Position numbers and translations under genes: made by a program
From: Candidatus Obscuribacterales bacterium
GTDB taxonomy: Bacteria; Cyanobacteriota; Vampirovibrionia; Obscuribacterales; Obscuribacteraceae
DNA: 64,000 nt
Assembly (NCBI GenBank): GCA_965228855.1
Contig: CBDDIJ010000002.1
Span: 1,984,001 to 2,048,000 of the forward strand
Reading direction: 5' to 3'
Shown here: piece after piece, positions 1 through 23,731 of the stretch
Numbering within the stretch: position 1 is the stretch's first letter
Layout of the letters: the number at the start of each line of letters is the position of its first letter
The notes under the pieces: model-generated
What the model saw: the letters and a program-made list of their open reading frames with translations, nothing else
Database searches by the model: none
What the model was told of the DNA's origin: nothing

Positions 1-505
1 CCATTCCCTGGTTGTTCAATTCCTTGTTGGCTTTGCTGTACTTACCGGATTTGATGTACTCCGGCATGATCGTGGCGACGACCGGATAGGTCATTCCATC
101 CGGAGTGACAAGCGACGTCAATTGAGTTCGCAGTTTGCCTATCGGTTTGGGCTGTCCCTTAATTTTCCGCTGTTTCCCTGAAGGAATCGCCTCCACGACT
201 TCGCCGATAATGCGTGAGCCATTTGGAATCACTACGTCGGTCGCATTGGCAAGGACCGGAGAAGTCACTTCGATGGAGAACTTCTGACCCTGTCTGGTTT
301 TCGATGAAATCGTCTCATTCATTCGACCTTCGAAATGCGAACCCATAGGGATCAGAACGGTTTTGCCGTGAATCGTATTAGGAGCTCGGTAGAACTTTTC
401 CGGATCGGTTTGTTTACCGCCCTGTGCACATGCACCGTCACTAAAAACCGTGATGCCTAGTCCTAGACTCAGGACTGACAAAACTAAAAGGTTTCGCTTC
501 TTCAT
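1..505 (-). CDS. Exported VirB10/TrbI-like beta-domain protein (3' end runs off window; absent from ORF track)
   Basis: Manual translation from ATG at 505: MKKRNLLVLSVLSLGLGITVFSDGACAQ (signal peptide), then VLIPMGSHFEGRMNETISS...FSIEVTSPVLANATDVVIPNGSRIIGEVV...LTSLVTPDGMTYPVVA, the IPxG / VIPxGSxxxG / L-TPDG pattern of TrbI/VirB10 C-terminal domains. Frame open to base 1. Confidence 0.6.
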   Translation of the reverse strand, partial: MKKRNLLVLSVLSLGLGITVFSDGACAQGGKQTDPEKFYRAPNTIHGKTVLIPMGSHFEGRMNETISSKTRQGQKFSIEVTSPVLANATDVVIPNGSRIIGEVVEAIPSGKQRKIKGQPKPIGKLRTQLTSLVTPDGMTYPVVATIMPEYIKSGKYSKANKELNNQGM

Positions 506-526
506 TGCTGGTTGATGTCCTGTGAC

Positions 527-772
527 TCAGTCGGCCGGCTCCACTGGCTCCGGCTCGGTTTCGGTTTGCTCTCTGCGTTTCATCGGTTTCAATCTGTTGT
601 AAACGTATACGATGAGGAACGCTACACTTAATATTGTAAGGATTAGCGTAATTAGCCGCCACAATCCCATGACGTAGCTTACCAGTCCAGGAGCCATAAT
701 CCCGAAAGCAACGGTGACAATGAGACCGCCGCCGATAAATTTTAGGAGCTGTTTTTTGTCGTAGTGAATCAT
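527..772 (-). CDS. Small two-TM membrane protein
   Basis: 81 aa, two hydrophobic helices, acidic tail; co-oriented and tightly packed with neighbours. Confidence 0.65.
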   Translation of the reverse strand: MIHYDKKQLLKFIGGGLIVTVAFGIMAPGLVSYVMGLWRLITLILTILSVAFLIVYVYNRLKPMKRREQTETEPEPVEPAD

Positions 773-827
773 ATCAAAGACCGCATGGTGAGCCTGGAGC
801 GGGTGACCGCACAGGATTCGAGTAAGC

Positions 828-1262
828 CTATTCCGGTGGATTCAGTTTTTCCTCGAACTGCGCAAGAATAATTGGAGCAACTACTTTTGTGGCGACGAAC
901 CAGGACCCGACTATAAATAGCGGCAATGCGAAAACGCGCACCAGGAGAGGAATGAATTGGTAAAAGAAAGTAGTTAGAACGATTGCGCAACCGACAGTGA
1001 CGATCTGGCAGCCGCGTGTAATTAGCTGTTCCTGATCTGGGCGACTCATTCCTTTGAAATAGCGGTCCAGAATGGCCATGTAGTTGGACCACATGTTGCC
1101 GACGCCGGTGACCCCTTGCTTGAAGCCTTTGGTCTCGGTGATGTTTTTCGGTTTCAGCCGATTGGACGGAACGTCACTATGATCCCCCGAGCCATTGCCA
1201 GATGGAGACGAAGGCGTATCCGTCTTTCCCTTTGCTCCTCTGAGTTTGCCCAGGTCCATCAT
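828..1262 (-). CDS. Small membrane protein, hydrophilic N-terminus and two C-terminal TM helices
   Basis: ORF 828..1286; GGAGGGG precedes ATGATG at 1262/1259, so start moved; two hydrophobic segments near C-terminus. Confidence 0.65.
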   Translation of the reverse strand: MMDLGKLRGAKGKTDTPSSPSGNGSGDHSDVPSNRLKPKNITETKGFKQGVTGVGNMWSNYMAILDRYFKGMSRPDQEQLITRGCQIVTVGCAIVLTTFFYQFIPLLVRVFALPLFIVGSWFVATKVVAPIILAQFEEKLNPPE

Positions 1263-1303
1263 CCCCTCCAAAATCTCTCCGCTCAACTATCTTACTTGGA
1301 ATT

Positions 1304-3769
1304 CTATTTGCGATCACGCTTTTTCAATCTGAACAGATCGTCTTCAACTTCTTTTCGCAGCGGATCGCTGTCTTCGGAAGCCTCCAGGAAATTGTTGGCG
1401 TAATCAATCGCCTTGGTGTCGTCCTTCTTCGTCCGGTAGTAGAGCTTGTAGAGCCCATAGTAGGCGTCCGGATGCTGCGGGTCCGCAATCAATGCCTGTC
1501 TGTAGTGGTCGATTGCTATTTCCGGAAGCTTCCAGGTTGCGTTACCGAGTTCGGTATGGCGCTTAGCTTCGTTCCTTTGACTAACTATTTTGCTTATGCC
1601 CTGTTCTGCTCTAGGTGCAACTTCGTTGATTTCTTTTGCGTACCCGTAAGCCTCCTCGGCTGACTTCAAATCACCATCGTTGTAGGCTTGTTCACCGAGG
1701 CTGAGCAATTCGTATGGCTCTTCCCTGTGAGAAGTAATCACTTGCGAAAATAGCTGACGAGCGTGACGAAAACGGGGCGGACTTTCAGAGAGCGCCTTTT
1801 CAGCTTCCGATAATTGGATCTTTTCGGTTAGATTTTTGGCACCTGATTTAACCAGGTTGCCCTGAACGCTTTGTTCGGTGACCACACGCTGAACTTTGTC
1901 GAGAAGGTCCGACCATCCCGAAGGGTATTGTCCCTCCTTGCGAGCTTTCTGGAAATACACGCGGGAAAGACCCAGCAGCGATTGAGGGTCGTTGTCTTTG
2001 GCACCGAGTATGGTTCTATATTCAGTTTCGGCTACTTCGAGTTTTCCCTGTCTGAGAGCCAGCTCTGCCAGATCCCCTCTCAGGCGCATGTCGTTAGGTA
2101 AAATCTCGAGCGCGTTATGCATTTCGGCAATAGCGAGTTCACCGTCGCCACGTGCACTGTAATACTTCGCCAGGTTTTTGTATGGCTCCGGATTCCTGGG
2201 ATCAAGGCGGTTAGCTTCCTTCCAACTTGCCAGAGCGGACGGACCATCGCCTTGAACTCTGTAGATATCGCCCTGGACTCTGTACCAATCAGAACCTCGC
2301 TGGTCACGAGGAATAGAGAGAAGCTCCGTGAATCCCTCTTCATGTTTACCTTTGTTGGTGAGGTAGATCGCTTTCTGGATTCTTGCCGGATGGAAGTTCT
2401 TATCCTGCGAAAGCGCATCATCGATGAGTGCTTTTGCGTCCTCATCATGTGGATCAACCTTCAAGAGAGCTTCGGCCAGTAACGAGCTAGTGTACGGATC
2501 TTCCGCCATTTTTGCCGCTTTTCGTAGCGGTGGAATTGCGCCCTCCGGGTCGTCTTGAGCAAGTTTTACCAGCCCGAGGGTCTGCTGTGCGATCACGGTT
2601 CCCGGATCGTCTTTGATTGCACGCTTTGCCAGTGACTCCGCTGCTTCCAAATAGAGATCGCGTTTAGCAGGAGAGGCGACCGACTTAGAGTGTATGTAGG
2701 AAACAAAACTTCCGGCGGCCTTTATATTAGGATTGTCGGAAAACTGCTCCTTGCCCTTTTTCATGATTTTCTCGGCTTCGATGACCTTCTTCGGCCACAT
2801 CTGTTTTGCAAGAGCTACAGCCAGACCTGCGTGAGCGTCTCCGGTATCGTCCTCGCCAATCAAGCTGCGATAGGCATCCTCAGCGGCCTCGAATTTATTT
2901 TTCAGCAAGAGCTCATCGGCTTCTATAAGGGAAGATGCTCTCTTTCGCTTGACTGGAACGGGCTCTCCCTCATCGTTTCCAGTGTCTACAGCCTTTTTAG
3001 GAGGTTGTCTTTTGATATCGGGAAGGTCGGAACCATCCGATTCATCTGAACTGTCTGCCTTCTGATCGCCTGATGATGATGGGCCGGTAGGTGGCGCTAC
3101 CTGTTCGCTTTCCGCCTGTTTCGGTGTCGGTTCTCCTGATGGAGAGCCCGTATCCGCTGGTTGCTCCGCAGATGGCGATGAAGTTTGTTCTTTTGCCGTC
3201 TCCGGCTCTGCACCACCAGTAGTGTCGGTTTCGGAATTCTTCGCTTTTGACTTCTTGGATTTTTTGCTGGTTTTTGTTGACTTTTGTGCCTTTGCGGGTT
3301 TATCCGAAGCCTCCTTGGGTTCCGCTTCAAGACTTTGCGGAGTCGGTTCGGACGTCGGTTCCGTCTTTGGCTCCGATGCGCTTTCAGTCTTAGACTCTGA
3401 TGCTGCTTCCCTCTCTTTTCTCTTGGAGCGAGAGGACGAGGATTTTTTCCTGGTCTTTGATGATTTCGTCTCAGTCTCCGTTGAAGTGGTGTCGCCAGCG
3501 GTGCCAGGAGAATCGGTCTGCTCCGCCGCTGGAGTGCCGTCTGCTGGTGTCGATACACCGGCAGGTGGCTCTAGCGAGCCGGTTGTGGCCGAAGCTGAAG
3601 CATCTTTTGAAGATGGAAGGTCCGCGCTCTCCGCGGTGTCCGCGGCAAGCGCTGTCGTATGCGCAGTTGCGCACGGACCAAGTAGCATGCACAACGACAT
3701 GGAGATGGCTATCAACGGATTCGACCCCGAGAAACCGGAGTCAGTCGAGGAGTTCCTTTTGCTAGTCAT
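1304..3769 (-). CDS. Exported TPR protein with long disordered S/T/E/K/P-rich N-terminal linker
   Basis: Hydrophobic N-terminal segment, ~230 aa low-complexity linker, many TPR-like helices (e.g. WYRVQGDIYRVQGDGPSALASWKEANRLDPRN); start probably ATG 3769. Confidence 0.8.
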   Translation of the reverse strand: MTSKRNSSTDSGFSGSNPLIAISMSLCMLLGPCATAHTTALAADTAESADLPSSKDASASATTGSLEPPAGVSTPADGTPAAEQTDSPGTAGDTTSTETETKSSKTRKKSSSSRSKRKEREAASESKTESASEPKTEPTSEPTPQSLEAEPKEASDKPAKAQKSTKTSKKSKKSKAKNSETDTTGGAEPETAKEQTSSPSAEQPADTGSPSGEPTPKQAESEQVAPPTGPSSSGDQKADSSDESDGSDLPDIKRQPPKKAVDTGNDEGEPVPVKRKRASSLIEADELLLKNKFEAAEDAYRSLIGEDDTGDAHAGLAVALAKQMWPKKVIEAEKIMKKGKEQFSDNPNIKAAGSFVSYIHSKSVASPAKRDLYLEAAESLAKRAIKDDPGTVIAQQTLGLVKLAQDDPEGAIPPLRKAAKMAEDPYTSSLLAEALLKVDPHDEDAKALIDDALSQDKNFHPARIQKAIYLTNKGKHEEGFTELLSIPRDQRGSDWYRVQGDIYRVQGDGPSALASWKEANRLDPRNPEPYKNLAKYYSARGDGELAIAEMHNALEILPNDMRLRGDLAELALRQGKLEVAETEYRTILGAKDNDPQSLLGLSRVYFQKARKEGQYPSGWSDLLDKVQRVVTEQSVQGNLVKSGAKNLTEKIQLSEAEKALSESPPRFRHARQLFSQVITSHREEPYELLSLGEQAYNDGDLKSAEEAYGYAKEINEVAPRAEQGISKIVSQRNEAKRHTELGNATWKLPEIAIDHYRQALIADPQHPDAYYGLYKLYYRTKKDDTKAIDYANNFLEASEDSDPLRKEVEDDLFRLKKRDRK

Positions 3770-3785
3770 AACAGGTTGTAAACCT

Positions 3786-5669
3786 TCAGTCCTTCTTTTG
3801 AAGATCATCGTACTTTTTCTTTTCTCGCTCAGATTCCTTTTTGTCGCCCATTTTGTCGAGCACTTCGGCCAACATTCTGTGTGGTTCCGGCAACTCGGCT
3901 GCCAGGCGGATAATTTGTTTCAACGAACTGGCGGCTAAAACCCAGTCGGAGTTAGCCATCGCCTCTTTGGCGGTGGTCATCAATCCATTCACTCTGGAGC
4001 TGTCCAACTGTCTTAAAGCATCATCGGCTCCAGGTGCTTTCAGTGAAGATCCCATCCGATAATCGACTTTGGCTCCGGCCATGTCTCCCGATTGCTCCTT
4101 GACACTGCCTCGCAAGAGATAGGCTTGTCCTTCTTCCGGATATTTATCAAGAATGCCTGAGAGATCAGCGATTGCGCCTTCTTTATCGCCGGAGGCGATC
4201 TTCTGCTCGATGGCGGCATACTGCTGAGGGCTGACTTTTGAGGCTGGCGGTGCTTTGGGATCTACTTTAGGTGCTTCTTGCGGCGTGCCACCGCCAGGAG
4301 TGGCGGCACCGCCTGCGGTACTTGCTGCGGTTCCGGAGGACGCGGCGCTCGTGCCGGCGCCGGCTGCGGAGGCGATCGCTGGCTGCCCAGTGAGTCTGGC
4401 TATGCCTTGCAGCAAATCTGGATTCACGTAGGCATTAATGGATTTCGCTTTCTCGTAAGCGCGAAGAGCGAGGTCGTTGTTTTTAAGAGACTCTTGCGCC
4501 TTTCCGTAGATGTATAGAAGTTCCGGGTCGTCCGGTCTCTTTTCCAATTCCTTCTCGATTTTCAGGCGTGACTCTTCCAGCAGCTTGGGCGTGGCAAGTG
4601 CCGATGAGACTACCATCAGGTGGAAAGATGTTCGGGCTTTGTGCAACGCCGGATTATTGGGCTGCAATTGCCAACACTTGTTGTAGCAGGCTTTGGCACG
4701 CTCGAAATCCCCGGAAAGAGAGTACGCGCCAGCAAGTGTTAGATTGTTGTCGAACGAGTCAGAAATTGCTACGGCTTCCTTTGCTGCGTTGACTAGCCCC
4801 CGCAGTGCATCCGCATTGTTAGGGTTGATTGTGGCTGCTCGGCGATAACATACCCCAACGTTCGCAAGACGTTTCAAATACAGAGGTCCGCGACCCTGTT
4901 CTTTTGCTTTTAGTGTCACGTCCCAGAGGATGTCTCCCATCAGGCAGTGGCAGTTTGACAATTCGTTCTGTTCTTGCGGACTCCAATCTTTATTGATCGC
5001 TGTTCTCAACTCCTCGTATGCTTCAACAATTTTTCCTTGCTTGTACATTACGCGAGCTAGACGGAATCGGCTTGGACCGTTATCTCTCATTTTTACGCAT
5101 TTGCGATATTCAACGATTGCCACTGGATAATTTCCGGCGATATCGGCTTCATCAGCCAATGCGGCTCGGACGTTATAGTCGTCGGGATTCTTGCCGATGG
5201 CACGCAAGCAGTTATCCAGATGCGAGTCGGCGGGCATGTTTGCCGGGTCCGCATAAAGTGCTTCTCTATAATGATTGATCGCTTCATACCATTTCTTTTT
5301 GGAAGCAAGTAAGTCCGCGTAGTGCAAATGGGCGCTGGATAGATTCATCCGGAAGGTCTGGTTCTCCGGATCTTGATTAAGCGCTTCTTCGTGTTCGCGG
5401 ATGGCGTCGTTCCACAATCCTTTGCTTCCCAGCTCCACGCCTCGATTATTGTGTTCCATCGGATTGCGCGGAGGTGGAGTTTGCAAGACCACTCCACTGC
5501 CACCGCCACCGCTGGAAGTGGCACCCGCGGCGCGCGCTCGTGTCTTCTTTGCCTCAAGTGGACCGGATAGTAAAAGGATTAGTGAAAGTGTCGATGTCAG
5601 AAGTAGTGGAATACTTCTTGCTAAATTGATTTTTGTTATCGGACGTGTAGTATCGGCTTGCCGAGTCAT
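3786..5669 (-). CDS. Exported TPR protein
   Basis: Signal peptide (LLLTSTLSLILLLSGPLEA), TPR motifs (HNNRGVELGSKGLWNDAIREHEEALNQDPEN), Ala/Gly/Pro linker, C-terminal TPRs. Confidence 0.85.
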   Translation of the reverse strand: MTRQADTTRPITKINLARSIPLLLTSTLSLILLLSGPLEAKKTRARAAGATSSGGGGSGVVLQTPPPRNPMEHNNRGVELGSKGLWNDAIREHEEALNQDPENQTFRMNLSSAHLHYADLLASKKKWYEAINHYREALYADPANMPADSHLDNCLRAIGKNPDDYNVRAALADEADIAGNYPVAIVEYRKCVKMRDNGPSRFRLARVMYKQGKIVEAYEELRTAINKDWSPQEQNELSNCHCLMGDILWDVTLKAKEQGRGPLYLKRLANVGVCYRRAATINPNNADALRGLVNAAKEAVAISDSFDNNLTLAGAYSLSGDFERAKACYNKCWQLQPNNPALHKARTSFHLMVVSSALATPKLLEESRLKIEKELEKRPDDPELLYIYGKAQESLKNNDLALRAYEKAKSINAYVNPDLLQGIARLTGQPAIASAAGAGTSAASSGTAASTAGGAATPGGGTPQEAPKVDPKAPPASKVSPQQYAAIEQKIASGDKEGAIADLSGILDKYPEEGQAYLLRGSVKEQSGDMAGAKVDYRMGSSLKAPGADDALRQLDSSRVNGLMTTAKEAMANSDWVLAASSLKQIIRLAAELPEPHRMLAEVLDKMGDKKESEREKKKYDDLQKKD

Positions 5670-6088
5670 TTGAACGCGATCTCCGCTGGACCCTAAAAAC
5701 TCTATGCACGATAGAAGGGGTTAATATCCATTCTATCGACCTTAAATTTTTACGCTGCAAAAAATGCGGCGACAATCGGGTTTTACCTGGGTTTTCAAGT
5801 GTTGTGGTGAAAATTGTTATCTACAATACAATTTTGCCCCGGAATTTTCTCTTCATATTGACAATCGCCTCCAAAAAGATTAAAAATTGGTAACTTCGCT
5901 TGCTGCCAGGTCGCAGTGTGCCCAATTTCGGAGGATGCAAGCCGGCTGATAAATTGTTAGACTGATCTTAAGCAGCATATAACTCTTCTACTTAGGGCAT
6001 TTTGTTTTTGAAGTTCTCTTACTAAGGCACAAAGAATTCACCGAGTCACGCTCTAGTCTCGATGATCGATTCCCCGGGAGGGATAAAG
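5670..6088. promoter_or_regulatory. AT-rich divergent promoter region; candidate sigma70 promoter on + strand
   Basis: Non-coding gap between divergent operons; TTGACA at 5858-5863, 17-bp spacer, TAAAAA at 5881-5886. Confidence 0.45.
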
Positions 6089-7132
6089 GTGAAAGCCTCT
6101 AAATATCAATTGCCGGCCGTTCTTGCAGTCTTCTCTGTACTTGTTTCGGCTATGCCATCTTCAGCTCAACTTCCGCCTGTCAACTGGGGCAAGTCTGTTC
6201 ACGGACCCGGTGATAACCAGTACGTAGGCGATCAACAAGGCATGAGACATCCGCCGAATACGACACCAACTCGCCCGCAGGTCGTGCCCATGATGGGTGG
6301 CGGCGGAGGCGGTGGTGGAGGTCCGGTCGCATACAGGCCTACTCCGAAGCGTCCGAAACCAGACATCTCCCTTCAGCCGATTCCAGCTGATGAACCTGTG
6401 GCTCCTCCAGGGTTTCCTCCTCTTCCCGATCGTCTTGATCTGCCCGGCGTAGATCAGGTTACATCCACCTTCTCCAGTTCTGGTGGTGGCGGCGCAGGCG
6501 GCGGCGGTTCGATGGGCGGCGGTGGTGGCGGCGGCGGACCGATGGGCGGTGGCTCAAACGTCAATCCATTTCAAGGCAAGAAGCAAGGCTATGCCCACTA
6601 TGAACCCGGCTCCTTCTCCGGCCAGTCCAGAGGCGGTGGTGGCGGTGCGTCGCCGATGAGTGGTGGTGGTGGCGGTGCTGTCGGAGACTTCCATCAGCAC
6701 TACAACCACAGTGCACCCGGCTCGTTTGCAGAGCCTCAACAGAAAGGTGTCGGTTATTACAAATGCCGTGAGGCCGCTCCACAAAGCAAACCAGTAGCAT
6801 TTGAAGAGTCATTCGGATCAGATTCGGCTAACAAACCGCCTGCATATGCAGGTGCCAGCGCGGCTGACCTGAAGAAGCTCGGTCGTGAGCCAAAGCTCAA
6901 CGATAGACAGAACGGCGGAGATTCTCAGCCCGAAGCTCCCACGCCAGTTTCCATCAACCAGGCTGCCACGCAAGACCTCTCTCTGCCGGACGATGAGTTC
7001 CGTTCGCGCAGACCGCCTAACAAGGCAGGCAAAGTGCTCGGCAGGATCGGACGTCGCATCGGCAATCGCGCCGGCGCAATGATGAACCAGGGGATGAACA
7101 TGGCAACCATGGGACTGACGAGCGGTAGATAA
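6089..7132 (+). CDS. Secreted Gly/Pro-rich low-complexity protein
   Basis: GGAGG upstream of GTG 6089; signal peptide ending SSA-Q; poly-Gly tracts; internal repeat HYEPGSF/HSAPGSF. Confidence 0.7.
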   Translation: MKASKYQLPAVLAVFSVLVSAMPSSAQLPPVNWGKSVHGPGDNQYVGDQQGMRHPPNTTPTRPQVVPMMGGGGGGGGGPVAYRPTPKRPKPDISLQPIPADEPVAPPGFPPLPDRLDLPGVDQVTSTFSSSGGGGAGGGGSMGGGGGGGGPMGGGSNVNPFQGKKQGYAHYEPGSFSGQSRGGGGGASPMSGGGGGAVGDFHQHYNHSAPGSFAEPQQKGVGYYKCREAAPQSKPVAFEESFGSDSANKPPAYAGASAADLKKLGREPKLNDRQNGGDSQPEAPTPVSINQAATQDLSLPDDEFRSRRPPNKAGKVLGRIGRRIGNRAGAMMNQGMNMATMGLTSGR

Positions 7133-7162
7133 CTCACTGGCTAGGCGAAGGAGATTTGAACT

Positions 7163-7867
7163 ATGAGGAAGACAATGAAGCACGGTTTACTAGCATTAAC
7201 CCTTTTAATCGGTACTGTATGCGGTGCCCAATCAGCTTCTGCGCAAGGTGGATTTTCAGGTCATATTCAGCAAAATAAGTTGGACAAAACCAAGTTTTTC
7301 AATGCACCAAGACAGATGCAAATCCTGGACGAGCGTCCTATTATCAAGGATTTCCGGGAAGCACCCGCTTCGTCTCCGATGATTGCGCTGCCTCCTGGTC
7401 CGCAGGGGAATATGGGCGGGTACGGCGGAAATGGCGCTGGCGCCCTCGGTGATGTTCCATCCGGTGGCGGTCCTGGCAGCGCTCCTGTACAGCTGGGCGG
7501 ACCCGGAGTACAACCCTATCGCAACGCTGACAGCGGCGGTCAACTTCCACTGCCCAAGTCCGGTTTCAACGGACCCTCAAACATTCCGGCTCGTGGACTC
7601 GGACCGAAAGGACCGTTAGCTGATGCAACCAGCACCAACCGTTTGATGGGCAAGATGATGAAACCGAAAGAGCAGATCGGCGGAACCTATCCGGCCGGTA
7701 GTCTCGGTGGCGGCCGCGGGCGTTCCATAAGTAAGGGACCAGCCGCGCCGGTCGCCGCTTCCTACGGAAGCAACTACGGAACGGGCTCGGGCAGCGGAAC
7801 TTCAAGCGGAAGCGCCGGACGCACCGATACTATGGTTCGCGGTACTCTGCTCGGCAAGACTAAATAA
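7163..7867 (+). CDS. Secreted Gly/Pro-rich protein
   Basis: AAGGAG RBS; signal peptide ending ASA-Q; low-complexity body. Confidence 0.75.
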   Translation: MRKTMKHGLLALTLLIGTVCGAQSASAQGGFSGHIQQNKLDKTKFFNAPRQMQILDERPIIKDFREAPASSPMIALPPGPQGNMGGYGGNGAGALGDVPSGGGPGSAPVQLGGPGVQPYRNADSGGQLPLPKSGFNGPSNIPARGLGPKGPLADATSTNRLMGKMMKPKEQIGGTYPAGSLGGGRGRSISKGPAAPVAASYGSNYGTGSGSGTSSGSAGRTDTMVRGTLLGKTK

Positions 7868-7894
7868 TAGAAACCCAGACCATTTAGAGGATAA

Positions 7895-9898: not shown

Positions 9899-9986
9899 AG
9901 GGGTCTTTGCTTATCGCTGCAAAGCCCGTAAGTTCACTCACATTTAAGCTGCACTAAAACCACTCCGCTCACTTCAGGTAAGAAGA

Positions 9987-12716: not shown

Positions 12717-12729
12717 GGGGGGCGGAATA

Positions 12730-15700: not shown

Positions 15701-18456
15701 CCGAGAAGATGGGCGGAGCAAGTTTCGAACAGGTCCAGAGCGCATATTATGGAAACACGGGTGATGCGGCAGCCACTATGGTGGCGCGTGGAAACTCCGA
15801 AATTCAGGGTCTGCAAGCCATGGGCATGTCGAATCAGCAAATTCAACAAGAAGCGGTTAGAAATGGCGATGCTTCGATTCTGGCTGCTCAGGCTGCGCAA
15901 TCGGCTCCGCAAGGCACTCTCGAACGTGCAATGCAAGGAGATACGGGGGCTCAGCGCGAGTTGCAGCAGGCAATAGGTTCCAATCCAACAATGCTGGAAG
16001 CCGCTTATAACGGTTCTTCTCACGCTCGAAGCGCAATTGAAAGCGCTTCCGGCGGTCAGGATGCTATGGTAATGGCCTCCGCATCCCACAATACGCAGGC
16101 GGTTCTCAGCCAGATGACCGGCGACCCGCGCGCCGTCGAACAAGCTTTGAGCGGTTCTCCTCAACAGAGAGAAGCATTCGTTCAACAGATGTCTTCGGAG
16201 CTTGGTGTGAGCCCGCGTGTTCTGAATGAAGCCGTAAGTGGTGGCAGTATGGAAGCCAGCACGGTTATGGCTAGAGCTGGACAGGTAGCTGAAGCCGGCG
16301 TCAGTGGCGGCGGCAACTACCAGCTCTCCGAGATGCAGACCCGACTTTCTGAAGGGCTGCAATCCGGCAGCGGGTTGATGATGGCTGCGCAAGCGTCGTA
16401 CTCTGCTGCCACGCATGGTGGTCAGGACACGCAGACGCTGTCATACGCGGCGTCGGGCAGTCAGTCACACGCGATGGCGGTGTCAGGAGCGGTCCAATCG
16501 AGCCAGGAGCTACGCTCCATGGGTTCGCCAGAAGCCAGCTCTGTGATTTCCGCAAGCTCAAGTGTTACGCACAGTGCCGGTGAGGCTTTGCAAAGTTATG
16601 CTTCTGCCAATCCGACCGCTGCGCTCCACGATGCTTCAGTGACCGCCCAGACTACTCTGCGAGACGCCGGCATCGATCCGCAGGCGGTGGTCAGTGGAGT
16701 CAGGAGTGGTGACAATACCGAGCTGACCAGGGCTGCCACCACATTCGGTGTCGCTCCGGACGTGGTGCAGGGCGCGCTCATGCGTGGTGATGCCGGAGAC
16801 GCGATGACATTGGTCGGAGCAGCGGGACGTAACACCCTGGCTCAGGGACCGGAAGCGGTCCAGTACGCTTCTCAGACTCAGTCCGGGCAGCTGGCCTTGC
16901 ACGTGGCTCAGAGCGTTCCTCAGGAGGTCCTCAGTTCTGCGATGTCCGGAAATGATGTCGCCCAGGCGCAGCTGGCTCGCTCTGTCGCGTCCGACCCGCA
17001 AGTGTTGGGCTCGGCTGCTGGAAACGAAGTTTCGCTTCGAGCCGTTGGTGCCACTCTCGGTGATGGCGCTTACGCGGCTGTCGCGGCTTCCAGCGCTGCC
17101 CAAGACATGGTTCGCATGCACCCGGATCAGAATCTGGTGCAAAGCGCACTTTATGGTCAGGGTGGTGAACAACAAGCGGCAATGGTTCACCTTGCGAGGG
17201 ACATGAATGTCGCTCCGCAGGTGTTAGCTAATTCACTTTCAGGTTCAAGCCAGGACCTGTCAGCGATGGTTTCGGCTTCATCCGCCGGACTGCATCGCTC
17301 ACAAGAAGCGACTCCGAGTTCTCCGTATTTCTCTGAACTATCAAGGACTTCCGGTGAGCAAGCTCCGATTGCGCAAGCCGTCCAGGCTGCAGGTTACGGA
17401 CAGAGCTACGAGGCTTCAACCCTTGCCGGTCAAGGTGTACCTGGGGCCATGGAGGCTGTACGTGCCACTATGGAGGTGAATCCGCAGTTGAGTCGCCTCG
17501 CAAGTGAGGGCAATCAGACGGCCAGCGCCATCATGACTGCCGCCTCGTCTGCCGGTCACTACGGTCCTAGCAGCTTTGCCGAGGTGGTGCGCGACGTAGG
17601 ATTGGCGGTGGGTGCCGGTGGCGCTATCATGAGCAACCTCCGTCCGTCCGACCCTGTCCACGGCATCCAGCCTCATCACCATCACATGGATAGAGGTGCC
17701 ATAAGCGGTTACGAGCAATTCGTATCGCGTCCGGAACCTCAACACTATTCACAGCCGCAACAATATTCGGAATATCGTGGCGGCGGCATGGAAGGTCGTG
17801 GTGGAATGGCGCAGGCTCATCCTCCGGACTCCTTGAGTCACGGAGGCAGCGCAATGCACTCACGCGATTCCGGCGCTACTCCGACGGCTCATCATATGGA
17901 GCCTGGTCCAAGTGCTCGCTACGTGGAGGGCACGTCAGGTCCAGCTCCAACGCCTCAGCACCGGGAGCCAGGATCCGGCTCGATTCCGACTGCTCATCAC
18001 GAGTCAGGCTCTGTCTATCGCTCGGAACCTGCCCCCGGAATGAGTTCTGCCGGACATCATCCGGAGCCGGGTCTGAGTGGACCGCCGCCAGGCGTTGAGC
18101 CCGGTATCGATCCTCGAGGTCAGTACATCGCAGAACAGCAGCGTGCTGAAAGCACTCCAGCTGTGGGCTGGTTCTCGGAAGGTCGCAAGGACGAAAGCGG
18201 AGCCAGCGGTTCCAAGCTCGGCAACGTCACTTCCGGCGCGACACCGATCCCGACAGGCGGAGCGCAGAACCGCTCCCTGACGCCTCAGGCGTGGGGTGGC
18301 GCACAAAATCGCAAAGCACAGGAGGAGAAGCTCGCCAGACAGCGCATAGCTGACCTGGAAGCTCAAGCTCGCCGTGCCAAGGCGGCTAACGACCAGGCTG
18401 AGTACGAGAAGATCAAGCGTAGTCTCGAACAGTTCGGTCATAAGTTGGATGACTAA
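12730..18456 (+). CDS. Giant extended VirB6/TrbL-like protein with poly-Gly linker, helical repeat array and His/Pro repeats (paralog 2)
   Basis: Shares TFGYPVSDTQFQ, LYDPE, FEGILRS.IA.FLIP and GP..SAL..WP motifs with paralog 1. Real start ATG 12730 (or 12799), because the track start 12469 lies inside the upstream gene. Confidence 0.65.
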   Translation: MKNTEKKTAFDTPEPKANKENETMKTNSKAETLRPGLLALCLLLGAFMFSNVQQAFAAGPDSNPLTHWDTRYNYFLRFPAAAQHGIRHQYNPQGGHDVVENQRSMGPGMVTHSKSGQVYAWPVTIPTAESAVPTFRDEAIQENLFQTFGYPVSDTQFQVIERYNHNRFLEQLYDPEKAMWMSTSMAGVMANSAGNSAANMGVNQCVNAIDYVRQPLANFTAEAGNIWQRIRYELFIPMAVLLLLPGAVLAQVRSIVAQGSGVLGDVSPFEGILRSVIAIFLIPGSFLVINYGIDVSNSLTFTIADEYHRMFGSDMYEDAKCAIRRAMPINDPNSNRNAIEPPMEAPLVEHDVWSPYESWDIATRLYDPCVGVDESRLPDEDVNASMMINRLLFNTTLSSLGLTWNIYCAFQMVFLYYLWCMGPIASALWVWPINRLRSAFGNWVEGVVILCFWALFWNTSIFLLAAFKGIGDTGTVYTAALVFLCIQSVKYAFDFVSLVGSAADGASQMAKEAIGQLSPKSGGAGGGGGGGGGGAPSGGSRGGGGSRGGGGGGGGGSTPSAPSTTTNSTAGALSSGSPVGRSGLGANLSTMSPSPMPMPGAGSGGAGGGAGGPGGAPGGAAGAAGPEAGPDGGKGSGPPPGSGDGPGGGKGADGEGGSGTGAAAGAAAAAIGGLALGGGKGGDGGGGAPPMSSAAYSMSKSVTNVGGDVNSGDLSQLANRNQDNSLFNNTTGAPDGAAGPMGLPPMAGGDMLSNAAINQAGNALFGDGPTAGLDNKALTAAAMLSGPEAFMGGNSGMTGLPSAADRNPLAKDLALDQMHTSGSQHHVMANGIDASMAGNPQAELARATTQDLMKQSGIGDETLNRALAGDTNATQAIQDKLGVSPMTLELARGGDPGATALAMESSMRANGHVGALPPGEAQTQRDQLLHAAAVNNDPVAARELLARNGEHTVAAMSASQSVTQELQQAGVTQDQFRQALGGDANMQHMVSEKMGGASFEQVQSAYYGNTGDAAATMVARGNSEIQGLQAMGMSNQQIQQEAVRNGDASILAAQAAQSAPQGTLERAMQGDTGAQRELQQAIGSNPTMLEAAYNGSSHARSAIESASGGQDAMVMASASHNTQAVLSQMTGDPRAVEQALSGSPQQREAFVQQMSSELGVSPRVLNEAVSGGSMEASTVMARAGQVAEAGVSGGGNYQLSEMQTRLSEGLQSGSGLMMAAQASYSAATHGGQDTQTLSYAASGSQSHAMAVSGAVQSSQELRSMGSPEASSVISASSSVTHSAGEALQSYASANPTAALHDASVTAQTTLRDAGIDPQAVVSGVRSGDNTELTRAATTFGVAPDVVQGALMRGDAGDAMTLVGAAGRNTLAQGPEAVQYASQTQSGQLALHVAQSVPQEVLSSAMSGNDVAQAQLARSVASDPQVLGSAAGNEVSLRAVGATLGDGAYAAVAASSAAQDMVRMHPDQNLVQSALYGQGGEQQAAMVHLARDMNVAPQVLANSLSGSSQDLSAMVSASSAGLHRSQEATPSSPYFSELSRTSGEQAPIAQAVQAAGYGQSYEASTLAGQGVPGAMEAVRATMEVNPQLSRLASEGNQTASAIMTAASSAGHYGPSSFAEVVRDVGLAVGAGGAIMSNLRPSDPVHGIQPHHHHMDRGAISGYEQFVSRPEPQHYSQPQQYSEYRGGGMEGRGGMAQAHPPDSLSHGGSAMHSRDSGATPTAHHMEPGPSARYVEGTSGPAPTPQHREPGSGSIPTAHHESGSVYRSEPAPGMSSAGHHPEPGLSGPPPGVEPGIDPRGQYIAEQQRAESTPAVGWFSEGRKDESGASGSKLGNVTSGATPIPTGGAQNRSLTPQAWGGAQNRKAQEEKLARQRIADLEAQARRAKAANDQAEYEKIKRSLEQFGHKLDD
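15270..17550 (+). repeat. Degenerate protein-level helical repeat array (~45-60 aa units)
   Basis: At least seven units of the form L..A..G[DSN]..A......LG..P..L..A..G, e.g. LNRALAGDTNA..LGVSPMTLELARGGD, LERAMQGDTGA..IGSNPTMLEAAYNGS, VEQALSGSPQQ..LGVSPRVLNEAVSGG, LSSAMSGNDVA..VASDPQVLGSAAGN. Confidence 0.7.
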
Positions 18457-18474
18457 TCGTCATTCTGATAAATC

Positions 18475-18521
18475 CGCGGGTCTAGACCGGTAATTAAGTA
18501 GCAATCCCGGTCTAGATCGCG
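18475..18521. repeat. Inverted repeat (hairpin or operator) after the giant gene
   Basis: CGCGGGTCTAGACCGG-16 nt-CCGGTCTAGATCGCG; 10-bp perfect core, each arm centred on TCTAGA; no U-tract. Confidence 0.55.
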
Positions 18522-18650
18522 TAACATGAACTTATTGACAACTCCCGGAGGGCTTCCACGGCTATCGAGAAAAATTAGAATCAAACTTCACTGCTCAGAT
18601 TGGCATAATATCTGTGCGGGGCACATGTCCGGGTTCTTCAAGGAGACCAA

Positions 18651-19268
18651 ATGCATCTAGCGGACGTAGGAGTTAAGTGCCACAACTGTGGAGTTGTATT
18701 CAACACGAAACAAATTCCGCTCATCGTCGACACGGGAAATAGAAACAGCGAACTCAGGCTCTTCATCGGGGGCTCTAATGAGAATTTCGAGCAGTATGCT
18801 GTCTGCACCTGTCCGTCGTGCGGGCTTGCTGATTGGGCGACGGCCTTCAGGAAGTCCGACGAACCATCCGTGTTGAGTCAAGCAAACTCTACTCCTCATC
18901 TACAGTTTCGTTGGGCTGCATTGGCGGCTGAGCGAGGTGGGAAGAGCTTCTACGCTATTGGTTTACTGTACCTCTATGCCGCCTGGTGCGCCGACGACAT
19001 CAATGCCATTCCTCAAGCCCGAGAATATCGAAAACTGGCTATCGACGCCTTCGCAAAATCGCTTACGGACGGTTCCTGTCCTCATGCTCAGCGAGCGGAG
19101 ATTGAGTATTTGATAGGTGAGTTACTGAGACGAGCCGGAGATTTTTTGAACGCAGTCGAGTACATGAAGGAGGTCGCGCCGCGCTTGCCGGCTAAATATG
19201 CCATGATGGCGCGCAAGGTTATGCGAATGAGTCAGGAAGGTCGCCTTGACCCAATCGAATTCAACTGA
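18651..19268 (+). CDS. DUF2225-like Zn-ribbon plus TPR-like protein
   Basis: CHNC...CPSC; LYLYAAW..DD; YLIGELLRRAGDF; AAGGAG RBS. Confidence 0.75.
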   Translation: MHLADVGVKCHNCGVVFNTKQIPLIVDTGNRNSELRLFIGGSNENFEQYAVCTCPSCGLADWATAFRKSDEPSVLSQANSTPHLQFRWAALAAERGGKSFYAIGLLYLYAAWCADDINAIPQAREYRKLAIDAFAKSLTDGSCPHAQRAEIEYLIGELLRRAGDFLNAVEYMKEVAPRLPAKYAMMARKVMRMSQEGRLDPIEFN

Positions 19269-19297
19269 CGTGAATGAAGCCAAGTGAGGTCCAATAA

Positions 19298-19681
19298 ATG
19301 TCGCAAGTTCATCGCGTAATAAATTTGAGGGAGCCTTTCAAGCTCTTCGGCATGACGCTGCATCAGATAGGCTGGTTGGCTCTCGGCGTGATCCTGGCCT
19401 TTGCGGTCGGTTCTCGAGTTCCTGGCGAATGGAAAATGGGAAATGTGCCGGCTGGTATAGTTTTAGGCATCGTGATTGTCGGTGTCGCCATTGTTGCCGG
19501 CGGTTTTACCGAATTAAAACCGATGGTTTGGTGGCGAAATATGTTTATGTACAGGCTGGGATTGGTGCCAAAATTGTACATTCCAAAAGCGGAAATGGGG
19601 CGTGTGTATCCAGATCCGACGATTACCGAACGCTCTGACGCGGAAGAATTCTATGTGGAGAGAGAAGGGCGGATGGACTAA
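19298..19681 (+). CDS. PrgI/VirB3-like two-TM protein
   Basis: 127 aa; REPFKLFGMTLHQIGWL resembles the PrgI N-terminal motif; two TM helices; immediately upstream of VirB4-like gene. Confidence 0.7.
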   Translation: MSQVHRVINLREPFKLFGMTLHQIGWLALGVILAFAVGSRVPGEWKMGNVPAGIVLGIVIVGVAIVAGGFTELKPMVWWRNMFMYRLGLVPKLYIPKAEMGRVYPDPTITERSDAEEFYVEREGRMD

Positions 19682-19757
19682 CTGGGGTTAGAACGGTTGA
19701 TCTAACTCGAATTTTCGGATTACACTGAGAATCAGTACAGGAACAGGTTTTTACTGG

Positions 19758-22532
19758 ATGTCGAGAAGCGCAAGACAATCGCCGACCCGCGGAGTATCTA
19801 GCTCCCGGAGATTGGAGCGGTCCAGCGCGCAGAAAAAATCGCGTCGAGGACGCGATGAAGAGCAATCTCAGGGGAATAGCGGGCGGCTAATTCCAACGAC
19901 ATCATCGCCGTCACTTCAGAACATATTTGCCGGTTTTTACAATCAGCTGCCAGCGATGCTTCGCGACTCTCTGCCATTTGGAGAAACCAACGGTGGCGGC
20001 GGCGGAGATGACGGTGACGACGGACCGCCCAAAGACAAACGCGGTGAGGCAAGCTGGCAGGATGTTTGTTTTTTGCATTCGATTCCTGGCGAGGACGAGG
20101 AAGAAGGTCTTGTAGTACTCGCCGATGGCAGTATGCGCAAATATCTCGCCGTGAAAGGCATCAACGTTCTGCTGTTCGATGACGCCGACCGTGAGCTGAT
20201 GGCGCGGCAGTTCTCCAATTTCATCAACTCATGCGAAAGCGATATTCAAATCATCATAAAATCTCGTCACTTGTCAGTCGACGAGTACCTGTCCAGGTAC
20301 CAGAAAACAATTATCAGCGACAACGAGTACTTGAAATGGTACGCCGACTACACCGATAAATGGTTCCGCCGGATTCAGGATGTATCGTTCGTCCCGCAGC
20401 GCGATTTCTACGTCGTAATCAGCTATCAGCCTCCGGACTGCAAGAGCGGTCAGGTCTGGAGCGGAAGACGGTCTATACAGAAGCACGAGGAGTATCTGGA
20501 CACGTTGAACCGTCTTCTGAAGACGGCTTTTGAGCAATTGCGTCAAGGTAACTTGCGTCCGAGAATTCTTACGCGTAAAGAAGTGCGTAATTTGATTTAC
20601 TCGGATTTGAACCCGTCGCTGGCACACCGGGACCCGGAAGCGCCGCCATCGCATCCTCAGTTGTCGGAAGCGTCTTGCCTCGCCGGAAGCGCGCTCAAAG
20701 TTCAAAACGAATATCTCTGGCTCGATGGAAAGTACATCGGCACTCAGTACATGTTCCAATTGCCGCACGATACCTGGATGGGATGGCTTGTAGACCTACT
20801 CACTCTAGGTGTCGAGTATACGATGTCGGTTTTCATTCACCAGTGCAATCAGGACAAAGTACGAGCGGATTTGAAGCGCAAATATCACCTGGGCATGGTG
20901 ACCAGTACGCAGCTTGCTACTCCTGACCTGGAGGGGCTGGAAGGCACGAGGCGAGCCGCGGCCGCTATTCAGGAATTCTTGCGCAGTTCCAATAAAGCAT
21001 TCGATTGCAGTCTCTATATTTCCAGCCAGTGTGATACCGCTGAGCAGCTCAATCACAACATGGACGAGATTCGTCGCGTGTTTAAAAACCGTGGCGCGAA
21101 CATGGACCGCGGTCAATTGCTGCAGCTCGATGCCTGGCAATCAACGCTTGCTGTGGGCGTCGACAAGCTCGCGATTATTCACCGTGTCATGTCGCCGATT
21201 GTGGGGACGATGTGGCCTTTCTTCACAGCCTCCTGCGGAACACCTGATGGGGTGCCGTTCGGCTTCGCTCTGACTTCTCGGGAGCCGGTTCTGCTCAACC
21301 CGTTCTTCCGAGGTGCGGGCAAAGACGCTAACAATATGTTCGTTGTGGGAACGACCGGTGCGGGTAAATCTTTCGCCGTGTCCATGATGATTCTCAGGCT
21401 ACTACCTATGGGCGTACGGTTCGTTTTAATAGACAAAACCGTAGACAAATTTGGTGCCTATCGGTTTATCACAGAACTTTTGGGTCCCGATCTATGTGCT
21501 TATGTAGACCTGGGTCCGAACTCAGGTTTTATGCTCAATCCGTTTGATCTTGGACCAGACGATCAGCTCAAAGGCGAGCCATCGCACGACAAAATTTCCA
21601 GTTTGCTTACTCTTCTCGACCTGATGCTGGCGCCCGAGGGCAGCGAGGAATTGAGCGTTCAAGAGAAGTCTCTTCTGGACGGTTTGATTCGCCTCTGTTA
21701 TATGGAGGCACAGCTGTCCGGCAAAGTTCCAACGATGTCCGACCTTGCAAGAGTGACAGCTCAGGCTGCTACGACGGAAGTCGATAACGTTCAACGTGAT
21801 CGCCTCGCGACCTTTGCTCGCGGTTTAAACCTGTTTACCAGAACCGGTGCATTCGGCGGTCTCGTGGATGGTCACACGAACATTGACACCGAAAAATTGT
21901 TCATCGTATTTGATACCAGAGAAGTTAACGAGCCTCGTCTGGAAAGAATCGCGGTCTTCATTCTGGCTGATTTCATCAGGCGTCGTGCTGCTGAATCGAA
22001 AGAACGCATGGTGCGTTTTGCCGCGATCATAGACGAAGCTTCGACCTTGATGCGATTCAAAGCCGGGGCGCGTCTATTGGATGACTTGTCGAGACGAGCT
22101 CGTCACTATGGGATGATGCTGGTTTCCATCACTCAGCAGTTGAAGGACTTTTTCCGGCAATCGGAGCAGGCCGATTCAGTCGTGAAAAACGCGCACATGA
22201 AAATTTTGCTGCGACAAGATCCGTCTGATTTGAAACTACTCAAAGAAGTGCTCCGGCTGCGGGATGCCGAAGTGCTTGCCATCGAAGCTTTTTCCAAAGA
22301 CGAAGAGAAGCGGAAGGAGTCTCAAGCCCTTCTAATCGTCGGCGCTGTTCACGGAACGATCCGGTTGGTGCCCTCTCCTATGGACTACTGGATCTGTACA
22401 TCGGAGCCAATCAGGGACATTCCACGACGACTGAAAATGATTCAGGAGGTTAAGGCTAAGAATCCCAAGTTAAGTCACACCGACGCGTGTCGACAAGCCG
22501 TCTATTATCTCGGCTTGCAGCACGACGGTTAG
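19758..22532 (+). CDS. VirB4/TraC-family T4SS ATPase
   Basis: Walker A NMFVVGTTGAGKS, FVLID, LNPFD, Walker B AIIDEAS, RRARHYG..LVSITQ, ILLRQ; 924 aa. Confidence 0.9.
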   Translation: MSRSARQSPTRGVSSSRRLERSSAQKKSRRGRDEEQSQGNSGRLIPTTSSPSLQNIFAGFYNQLPAMLRDSLPFGETNGGGGGDDGDDGPPKDKRGEASWQDVCFLHSIPGEDEEEGLVVLADGSMRKYLAVKGINVLLFDDADRELMARQFSNFINSCESDIQIIIKSRHLSVDEYLSRYQKTIISDNEYLKWYADYTDKWFRRIQDVSFVPQRDFYVVISYQPPDCKSGQVWSGRRSIQKHEEYLDTLNRLLKTAFEQLRQGNLRPRILTRKEVRNLIYSDLNPSLAHRDPEAPPSHPQLSEASCLAGSALKVQNEYLWLDGKYIGTQYMFQLPHDTWMGWLVDLLTLGVEYTMSVFIHQCNQDKVRADLKRKYHLGMVTSTQLATPDLEGLEGTRRAAAAIQEFLRSSNKAFDCSLYISSQCDTAEQLNHNMDEIRRVFKNRGANMDRGQLLQLDAWQSTLAVGVDKLAIIHRVMSPIVGTMWPFFTASCGTPDGVPFGFALTSREPVLLNPFFRGAGKDANNMFVVGTTGAGKSFAVSMMILRLLPMGVRFVLIDKTVDKFGAYRFITELLGPDLCAYVDLGPNSGFMLNPFDLGPDDQLKGEPSHDKISSLLTLLDLMLAPEGSEELSVQEKSLLDGLIRLCYMEAQLSGKVPTMSDLARVTAQAATTEVDNVQRDRLATFARGLNLFTRTGAFGGLVDGHTNIDTEKLFIVFDTREVNEPRLERIAVFILADFIRRRAAESKERMVRFAAIIDEASTLMRFKAGARLLDDLSRRARHYGMMLVSITQQLKDFFRQSEQADSVVKNAHMKILLRQDPSDLKLLKEVLRLRDAEVLAIEAFSKDEEKRKESQALLIVGAVHGTIRLVPSPMDYWICTSEPIRDIPRRLKMIQEVKAKNPKLSHTDACRQAVYYLGLQHDG

Positions 22533-22563
22533 TGCAACAGCCAACTAGAGGAGAGACGATCAG

Positions 22564-22779
22564 ATGATAGACAGAGAATCGTTACGCCACGTTATGGCTG
22601 CGATTATCGTTGCAGAAGAGTTGCGGGTTCCAAGTATTCGCAGCGGCGATCAGCACTTGATTGACGACCTGCTGCGCAAACAGTTTGCGCCAATGGTTCA
22701 GAACACTTACATCATCGTCGATCTCATGTTTGAAATTGCTGAGTGGCAAGCCAATCAGCGTCAGTCTCGAAACGAATAG
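22564..22779 (+). CDS. Small hypothetical protein in the T4SS-like operon
   Basis: 71 aa, GAGGAG RBS, fills the operon gap. Confidence 0.55.
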   Translation: MIDRESLRHVMAAIIVAEELRVPSIRSGDQHLIDDLLRKQFAPMVQNTYIIVDLMFEIAEWQANQRQSRNE

Positions 22780-22789
22780 ACGCCTTTTC

Positions 22790-23155
22790 ATGGAAAAAAT
22801 CTTTACTCCAAACAAATGGTTCGTGGGGTTTTGCGCCCTTCTGATCGTTGTTGTGGCGACTCTTAAATTTGTTGGTGACATGCACCTTGCTGAACTCGCA
22901 AGCGAAGTCGGAAAAGATGTTTTTATCTGGGAGTGGCCCTCGATGGGACTTAGCTCAAGATGTATGTCCATGAAATCGCACGTGCTCCGAAGAGACGCTA
23001 ACGACGCGGTCGTTGAAGTGTCGGGTCGTCAGATCATTGCTAAACTTGGACAAGATAATAAAATGAAAGAGGAAGAGCAACCAGAAGCAAAGGCCGTTCT
23101 GACGTTTTACCGCCGCAGTAACAAGTGGGAATTAGGCAAGGTGGAGCTGAAATAG
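22790..23155 (+). CDS. Bitopic protein with NTF2/cystatin-like periplasmic domain
   Basis: Start ATG 22790; N-terminal TM, then beta pattern AVVEVSG...AVLTFYRRSNKWELGKVE; stop abuts next ATG (TAGATG). Confidence 0.6.
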   Translation: MEKIFTPNKWFVGFCALLIVVVATLKFVGDMHLAELASEVGKDVFIWEWPSMGLSSRCMSMKSHVLRRDANDAVVEVSGRQIIAKLGQDNKMKEEEQPEAKAVLTFYRRSNKWELGKVELK

Positions 23156-23731
23156 ATGTACTGGAAAGTAAGAAAAGTATCGCCTGAACAATTGATGCGT
23201 CAATACGGAGTCCACATCCTCCTCGCCTGCAGTCTGGTGGGCAATTTCATGCTGTTCATCACGCGTCCCAAAAAAGAGGTCGTGACGAAGGAGCAGAAAA
23301 ACGATTTCGGCAACTTTGCCAAGCAAGTCACCACGCACCTCCTTGATACCAGTTACATAAACTACATCGAGTCGACCGCGCGGCTGCAATCAGAGTTGTC
23401 TGATTCTGTGAAGCAAAGACTGCGTGCTGATGGAATTTTGCCGGCAACGGACCAGGATTTAAAGGCTAACCATATGGAATTCAGCAAGGCACGCCGCGTT
23501 TGTGCGATGCAGTTCAAGCAGGTCGACGTCAAAGATCCGAACCAGAACGGCATGATTCCTGTTGAAGTTCAAGGTGTGGTGGCAGTCCATTCCGCCGATG
23601 AATCGGCTCAACAACCGTTCCACTTAGCCTACATGGTGGGTCTACGCAAAGGCGAGCCACCCACGCCGGTTGTCGTAAGCATGCAAGATCTGCCTCCCGC
23701 GCCTGTCGTTGAAAACGCACCACAACAATAG
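23156..23731 (+). CDS. VirB8/DotI/TcpC-like bitopic protein
   Basis: Single TM, then FAKQVTTHLLDTSYINY helix and beta strands (IPVEVQGVV...FHLAYMV), consistent with the VirB8-like NTF2 fold; last gene of operon. Confidence 0.55.
   Translation: MYWKVRKVSPEQLMRQYGVHILLACSLVGNFMLFITRPKKEVVTKEQKNDFGNFAKQVTTHLLDTSYINYIESTARLQSELSDSVKQRLRADGILPATDQDLKANHMEFSKARRVCAMQFKQVDVKDPNQNGMIPVEVQGVVAVHSADESAQQPFHLAYMVGLRKGEPPTPVVVSMQDLPPAPVVENAPQQ

Follow-up and report, generated by a model that had tools for sequence, protein, structure and literature searches.

In this study we discuss a type IV secretion system (T4SS) locus of a Candidatus Obscuribacterales bacterium (Cyanobacteriota, Vampirovibrionia), which occupies the first 23,731 positions of a 64,000-nucleotide stretch of DNA (contig CBDDIJ010000002.1 of assembly GCA_965228855.1, positions 1,984,001 to 2,048,000 of the forward strand), referred to as a whole as the window. 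The two divergent operons of the window are called locus A, and a second VirB4 locus of the same 8.2-Mb source genome (G000, contigs C2 to C5) is called locus B. We show that locus A holds the inner-membrane core of a T4SS (VirB4, VirB6, and VirB8, with a putative VirB3), probably of monoderm (FATA-like) type, and that it is a fixed, vertically inherited chromosomal core module of the Obscuribacterales, not an integrative conjugative element (ICE).

Several described systems lend themselves to comparison. The T4SSs of Patescibacteria, in the part of the source on which we draw (PMC12102498), are lineage-wide and chromosomal; they combine a FATA-related VirB4 with PrgI and VirB6, have VirB2 arrays and a usually distant type IV coupling protein (T4CP), and are deemed non-conjugative, all of which recalls the Obscuribacterales. 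Their hosts, on the other hand, are monoderm epibionts without outer-membrane parts, and their pilins are highly variable (~25% identity), whereas the Obscuribacterales genomes sampled here, nearly all of them metagenome-assembled, measure 3–9 Mb, hold near-identical pilin-like copies, and encode a second system with an order-wide relaxase. The rvh system of Rickettsiales is also made up of vertically inherited islets, with a pilin gene away from VirB4 and with duplicated VirB6 and VirB4, and in Ehrlichia one regulator governs all T4SS islets; however, in the excerpt of PMC2653234 used for both statements, rvh is related to the vir type of mating-pair formation (MPF) system (MPF_T), with VirB7, VirB9, VirB10, and VirB11, so its likeness to locus A is one of organization alone. 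ComB, Ptl, and Trw resemble locus A in that VirD4 is absent from the locus (ComB also does without VirB11), but according to the sections of PMC12857230 consulted all three are of MPF_T descent and possess a VirB9/VirB10 core of the canonical kind. The T4SS of Vampirovibrio chlorellavorus, a member of the same class, was proposed to play a part in prey contact, but as far as the available portion of PMC4451040 describes it, it is a T-type trb system and mostly plasmid-borne. Finally, conjugative MPF_FATA systems agree with locus A in the best VirB4 profile (CD1110), the PDB match (4AG5), and the nearest VirB6 relatives (Bacillota TrbL_4 clusters). Unlike these, locus A has a VirB4 that stays below the cut-off (325 bits) and scores close to TraC-F, a diderm host, and a fixed chromosomal site; it lacks a relaxase, a T4CP, and VirB1 in cis and carries extra lipoprotein, TrbI, and TPR genes. 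Literature searches, with most subscription journals and supplements (e.g., class-wide CONJscan tables) outside their coverage, gave no paper describing a T4SS of Obscuribacterales, and the locus, an order-defining one, had apparently not been described before.

The distribution of locus A was followed with the C-terminal 436 residues of its VirB4 (VirB4-A), taking a match of at least 80% identity as an orthologue. All 25 same-order genomes that are at least 85% complete have one (the copy in G123 with internal stops), and none of 95 other genomes of the class does, 10 of them giving matches at 23–28% identity only. A looser sample yields 20 of 21 order genomes, with G010 showing a paralogue only. 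The head-to-head operons, with trbI adjoining ubiX, recur in 16/16 relatives whose fetched stretch spans the operon junction, family f2 included. Trees of VirB4-A and RpoC1 (15 genomes) have 8 of 12 splits in common, with r 0.94 and no strongly supported conflict, and VirB4-A is better conserved than the neighboring ubiX and rimM. At locus A no T4CP, relaxase, VirB11, or CagX/VirB9 was found, and within 100 kb of it no tRNA; the nearest MOB-TraG pair lies ~150 kb away and the nearest tyrosine integrases ~170 and ~190 kb away. Of the hallmarks of an ICE (a relaxase and a T4CP within the element, an integrase, a tRNA site, a patchy distribution), locus A displays none. Because of the order-wide presence, fixed site, vertical trees, and lack of a nearby integrase or tRNA, we regard it as a core locus. 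An initial annotation, made from the letters of the window, had called the apparatus domesticated and had seen no relaxase, VirD4/T4CP, VirB11, or VirB9; the first is strongly supported and the second is confirmed for the locus in cis (VirB9 as CagX), and no patchily distributed relaxase, T4CP, or integrase module adjoins the locus, which is universal in the order and has ubiX–rimM as its left flank. Since the machine is kept in every genome sampled, those of 3 Mb included, and its VirB4 is more conserved than ubiX and rimM, it must do something central. A separate, ordinary mobilizable element with an integrase, a relaxase-like gene, and TraG is located ~150 kb left of the window (C2:1815090-1837611).

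The features of locus A are listed below; their open reading frames lie where the initial annotation had placed them. Counts out of 80 refer to VirB4 loci.

1 to 505, minus strand: 5' part of the gene for a TrbI/VirB10-like protein (383 aa) with an N-terminal signal-type segment; 646 bp more lie left of the window
527 to 772, minus strand: 81-aa protein with two hydrophobic segments and no assigned family, at the same position in relatives
828 to 1286, minus strand: 152-aa protein with two hydrophobic segments and no assigned family, at the same position in relatives
1304 to 3808, minus strand: exported TPR protein, 834 aa, with an acidic low-complexity N-terminal part, syntenic in relatives
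3786 to 5669, minus strand: exported TPR protein, 627 aa, syntenic in relatives
5810 to 5835, no strand: putative A/T-flanked palindromic operator TGT(A/T)-N8-(T/A)ACA, lying 26-28 bp upstream of the -35 hexamer
5858 to 5887, plus strand: sigma-70-type promoter (TTGACA, 17 bp, TAAAAAT), predicted from the sequence consensus and facing the right operon
6062 to 7132, plus strand: signal-peptide protein, 356 aa, Gly/Pro-rich, of no family, syntenic
7163 to 7867, plus strand: signal-peptide protein, 234 aa, which over its C-terminal 39 residues matches the protein at the equivalent place of locus B; paralogues elsewhere
7895 to 9898, plus strand: lipoprotein, 667 aa, with a conserved Cys19; candidate envelope conduit
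9987 to 12716, plus strand: VirB6-like protein a (B6a), 909 aa, with a Gly/Ser-rich tail, homologous to B6b and the VirB6 of locus B
12730 to 18456, plus strand: extended VirB6-like protein b (B6b), 1908 aa from ATG, with an Ala/Gly/Ser tail of ~1380 aa
18651 to 19268, plus strand: DUF2225 zinc-finger/TPR protein, which also precedes PrgI in locus B and was not detected at locus A in several relatives
19298 to 19681, plus strand: PrgI/VirB3-like protein (Pfam E 0.08), in 72/80 VirB4 loci
19758 to 22532, plus strand: intact VirB4 ATPase, FATA-like, under all family cut-offs
22793 to 23155, plus strand: 120-aa bitopic protein with no assigned family, in 75/80 VirB4 loci
23156 to 23731, plus strand: VirB8-like bitopic protein, 191 aa, in 72/80 VirB4 loci

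A 71-aa open reading frame at 22564-22779, present in 4/80 VirB4 loci, was excluded from this list.

The core is anchored by VirB4-A, in which both Walker motifs are intact (Walker A GTTGAGKS, Walker B IIDE), as initially claimed, and which matches Pfam P-loop_TraG (E 1e-19) and TraC_F_IV (2e-10). Among the profiles, FATA-type CD1110 scores highest at 188 bits (its cut-off being 325 bits), followed by TraC-F (178) and Mbov (174), with a weak TrsD match in addition; 4AG5 is the sole PDB match. Plasmid sequences match at less than 30% identity, and 1 of the 20 clusters of the nearest outside VirB4s carried an organism name (Baekduia). VirB4-A thus leans toward a FATA-like assignment by its profiles. 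For the PrgI-like protein, the Pfam match is weak, and its conserved place before VirB4 fits. The call of two VirB8-like genes held for one of them: the AlphaFold model of the 191-aa protein (pLDDT 80.5) has CagV, DotI, TraM, and Brucella VirB8 as top Foldseek matches, which confirms it as a bitopic subunit with a predicted VirB8 fold (a PDB sequence search with the VirB8 alignment gave nothing meaningful), whereas the 120-aa protein found no match in Pfam, NCBIfam, or PDB. Both VirB6-like proteins are supported as VirB6 polytopic subunits by topology (5-7 hydrophobic segments), and the membrane region of B6b has TrbL_4/DUF8208 clusters as its nearest neighbors in the ESM Atlas (score 0.90); Pfam TrbL matched neither. 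The pair is found at locus A in 14/16 relatives and has moved elsewhere in G001 and G096.

Some relatives of these core genes occur in other settings. The source genome has a second VirB6a+VirB6b pair (C3:87870-95287), and in G001, G031, G046, and G096 VirB6 pairs are located away from locus A and duplicated. A lone VirB4 copy of 736 aa without Walker A and without partner genes is encoded at C2:642113-644323, and several relatives have lone full-length copies, 62-70% identical, again without partner genes. In another family of the class (G029, G023, G085), a different chromosomal locus among housekeeping genes encodes a small membrane protein, a long VirB4-like protein (with a hydrophobic N-terminus, possibly a VirB3 fusion), a VirB8-like protein, and a secreted protein.

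Lineage-specific envelope parts had also been proposed for this monoderm-type core. While the core is borne out by the VirB4 profiles, 4AG5, and the TrbL_4 clusters, the envelope parts are plausible only. In the sequence left of base 1, the TrbI-like gene is followed by ubiX and rimM, and its orthologue is present in 27/27 same-order genomes. The VirB10 call itself is weak, with a partial TrbI match below the cut-off (Pfam E 1.3e-5, NCBIfam 0.003) and no PDB match in a sequence search with the alignment. Together with the missing CagX match, this leaves the VirB9 and VirB10 outer-membrane core of diderm systems unrecognized at locus A, and for a monoderm-type core in a diderm without VirB9 the crossing of the outer membrane becomes a testable question. 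The lipoprotein contains one TolC/OEP-like helical segment (residues 365-441, E 1e-4) and ends in a DUF4352 Ig-like domain (E 1e-5); a PDB sequence search with its alignment gave nothing meaningful. The C-terminal 39 residues of the 234-aa secreted protein align with those of its locus B counterpart (hhalign probability 91%, E 1e-6). We considered this C-terminal motif as the mark of a large substrate family and rejected the idea, as there is just a handful of paralogues.

A pilin candidate lies outside the window. Four tandem copies of a 172-aa secreted hairpin protein are encoded at C5:981113-984848, with the operator upstream, and a lone fifth copy at C3:743627-744145. Its sequence comprises a signal peptide and a pair of Gly-rich hydrophobic helices with a short lysine loop between them, and its last 80 residues are near-invariant. 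Such a layout fits VirB2. Matches were obtained in 40/40 order genomes, often as arrays (partial or in fused form in some fragmented assemblies); in a comparison across the order boundary, 11/11 genomes within and 0/49 outside had the protein. In the second family copies sit beside locus A, with three of them ~4 kb from trbI in G020 and ~3 kb from ubiX in G019. By anatomy, linkage, and operator, we infer that the array proteins are VirB2-type pilins of locus A. Similar hairpins, of the type found here (A-type) or in locus B (B-type), terminate VIT-vWA membrane proteins (C3:209114-212530, C3:1276092-1279195, C3:868465-871377, and C5:128288-131584), where they could denote pilus-borne cargo or a sorting tag. 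In one of these proteins a split occurs close to the end, and another has short pieces of both motifs.

The operator ties these loci together. It is conserved in 11/14 locus A intergenic regions, and three locus A regions outside the training set score 23-32 bits. When a matrix built from locus A only was run over the 8.2 Mb, ranks 2-4 went to two sites at the pilin-like array and to another that precedes the gene of a 5941-aa giant protein. Scores of at least 14 bits were reached upstream of the pilin-like gene at 12/28 loci (0/127 control windows) and, when a second matrix trained on sites from both locus A and the array was used, in 5/14 relatives upstream of the giant gene (0/42 controls; six further stretches ended at contig edges); as these counts come from kin and are non-independent, they show conservation and give no probability. 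The predicted operator is thereby shown to be common to locus A and the array of small secreted hairpin proteins, and it defines a small, checkable regulon. It resembles the cyanobacterial NtcA box, but a search with a short NtcA recognition-helix pattern had 0 matches among the open reading frames and so turned up no regulator.

The giant gene belongs to a group, here called islet D (C3:2524960-2564026), that encodes three giant proteins of 1457, 1835, and 5941 aa without signal peptide and with a common C-terminal DUF7718-like domain, the largest of which also has LysM and a zinc ribbon. Their neighbors are two ATPases, one HerA/CedD-like and the other, of 1503 aa, VirD4-like with one membrane segment and Walker A. 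The VirD4-like ATPase is present in 29/30 genomes and the DUF7718 domain in 28/30, and in some genera the operator precedes the giant LysM-DUF7718 gene. A common C-terminal domain beside a VirD4-like ATPase makes the three giants candidate effector substrates, their binding to the ATPase being a candidate interaction as well. Genome-wide, about twenty very large proteins with signal peptides (2000-9500 aa) have a common conserved C-terminal domain.

Taken together, we put the chances as evenly balanced that the Obscuribacterales possess a scattered, vertically inherited monoderm-type T4SS in a diderm envelope, which assembles a pilus for contact and is likely to export large proteins. VirB4-A would extract the array pilins from the inner membrane to form the pilus, and the lipoprotein, together with the TrbI-like and both TPR proteins, would replace the VirB7/9/10 complex and carry the pilus across the periplasm and outer membrane. 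The VirD4-like ATPase of islet D would recruit the signal-peptide-less LysM-DUF7718 giants as cargo for the channel, a single regulator would switch locus A, the array, and islet D together, and the machine would serve contact with other cells and protein delivery to them, with DNA transfer, if any, falling to the separate locus B. Because a probable pilus and cargo genes elsewhere stand under the same operator, direct contact of these bacteria with other cells is suggested; contact with a partner or prey, if true, could explain their resistance to culture.

Critically speaking, several observations weigh against this scheme. The operator was not found in 3/14 locus A regions, 16/28 pilin loci, and 9/14 giant-gene regions, the positive cases being kin. 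For the pilin identity, searches of Pfam, NCBIfam, and PDB and hhalign to TrbC were blank or trivial, and the same hairpin forms the end of large membrane proteins of the VIT-vWA kind, in the manner of a sorting tag. The T4CP matches of the islet D ATPase are weak (E 3e-7), and a pattern search found no Walker B in it. Moreover, since TrbI-like proteins form a large family in this genome (10 open reading frames by one profile), the left operon may be linked by position only.

A bolder version of this scheme, which we consider possible but doubtful, takes the two VirB4 loci as a domesticated pair of monoderm-type conjugation machines. Locus A would take a new route across the outer membrane (with the lipoprotein as a single-repeat TolC-like element, a barrel of VirB10 type that stands free, and scaffolds of TPR proteins), deliver the LysM-DUF7718 giants to prey or host cells, and display pilin-tagged VIT-vWA proteins; the order would then consist of contact-dependent predators or epibionts, and locus B would retain its relaxase for routine chromosomal conjugation.

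Locus B (C3:3042915-3065575) encodes secreted proteins, two VirB2-like hairpins, an extended VirB6, DUF2225, PrgI, VirB4, a VirB8-like protein, a T4CP (E 4e-19), and a relaxase of family PF13814 (E 7e-11), which is MOB_C in the part of PMC5357655 used here. Its gene order parallels that of locus A, except that VirB2-like hairpins take the place of the lipoprotein. Like A, it belongs to the core of the order. The relaxase is found in 58/60 genomes, and an order-wide chromosomal relaxase is surprising in itself; the VirB4 is found in 23/25 same-order genomes. A test of A and B as sister duplicates gave a p-AU of 0.29 (27 rows chosen from 130). Between VirB6 and DUF2225 lies a repetitive, non-coding-looking stretch (C3:3052847-3053690). 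The absence of coupling protein and relaxase, as initially annotated, and that of a pilin hence hold in cis only, since the T4CP and MOB_C relaxase of locus B, the VirD4-like ATPase, and the pilin-like array are encoded in trans in the same genome and in nearly all relatives. In view of these, the label non-conjugative is likely for locus A, and we do not extend it to the cell. Neither these parts in trans nor the TolC-like/Ig-like lipoprotein or the conserved operator and promoter had been mentioned in the initial annotation.

Locus B also gives rise to the first rival explanation, in which A and B work as a single machine for DNA transfer, divided over two loci and used for chromosomal conjugation, B contributing the relaxase, T4CP, and its own pilin and A the envelope channel. 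The strength and retention of the T4CP and relaxase matches speak for it, as do the parallel gene order, the lack of any recognized envelope gene in B, and the identical A and B VirB4 trees (8/8 splits, 11 genomes). Nevertheless, A and B each come with a VirB3/4/6/8 set of their own, the two VirB4s are just 28% identical, a scan of the locus B stretches gave no operator site, and vertical descent alone explains identical trees. We consider such a joint machine unlikely.

Distinctly unlikely, in our view, is a purely adhesive pilus of the Bartonella Trw kind, in which no substrate would be moved and the multi-copy pilins and extended VirB6 pairs would tune attachment. This reading draws on the missing T4CP in cis, the multi-copy pilin-like gene, the duplicated and relocated VirB6 pairs, and the Trw precedent as given in the excerpt of PMC12857230 at hand, but the pilin-like copies are near-identical in their C-terminal half, unlike the variable Trw pilins, and among what the operator marks are giant proteins of cytoplasmic type, which have a VirD4-like ATPase next to them.

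A machine of the Helicobacter ComB kind, which would take up DNA and feed it to ComEC, appears improbable. Although the in-cis set without VirD4, VirB11, and VirB5 matches ComB (PMC12857230, same excerpt) and ComEC is present in the genome, PilB/PilT-type ATPases are encoded too, so that the usual uptake route exists, and no operator match was found at comEC. Improbable as well, and placed after it, is a T4SS-derived surface-sorting system, in which the hairpin would be a C-terminal tag and the tagged proteins would be anchored or polymerized into a coat without any pilus. The VIT-vWA proteins with hairpin ends fit this idea, resembling the exosortase-system families TIGR04477, TIGR04286, and TIGR02921 (all below cut-off); most tagged proteins, however, consist of little besides the hairpin, the B-type form of which is in register with TrbC when aligned by eye, and no sorting enzyme was recognized at these loci. 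An ICE of the ordinary kind, or what is left of one, for which the descent of the core genes from conjugation genes and the GC content of locus A (54% versus ~50% in the flanks, for which Gly/Ala-rich genes can account) could be invoked, is treated as refuted by the universal, fixed, and vertically inherited state set out above.

A few further observations concern the surroundings of the locus and the assembly. A lone TadC-like (T2SSF) gene is located at 27019-27945 of the window. We disregarded the canonical trb system of contig C4, which neighbors eukaryote-like sequence, as a probable contaminant. Since C4 fuses eukaryote-like genes to a trb ICE and the GC content on C2, of which the first 1.1 Mb are concerned, drops from 63% to 50%, the assembly may be partly contaminated; the window sits in the 50% part.

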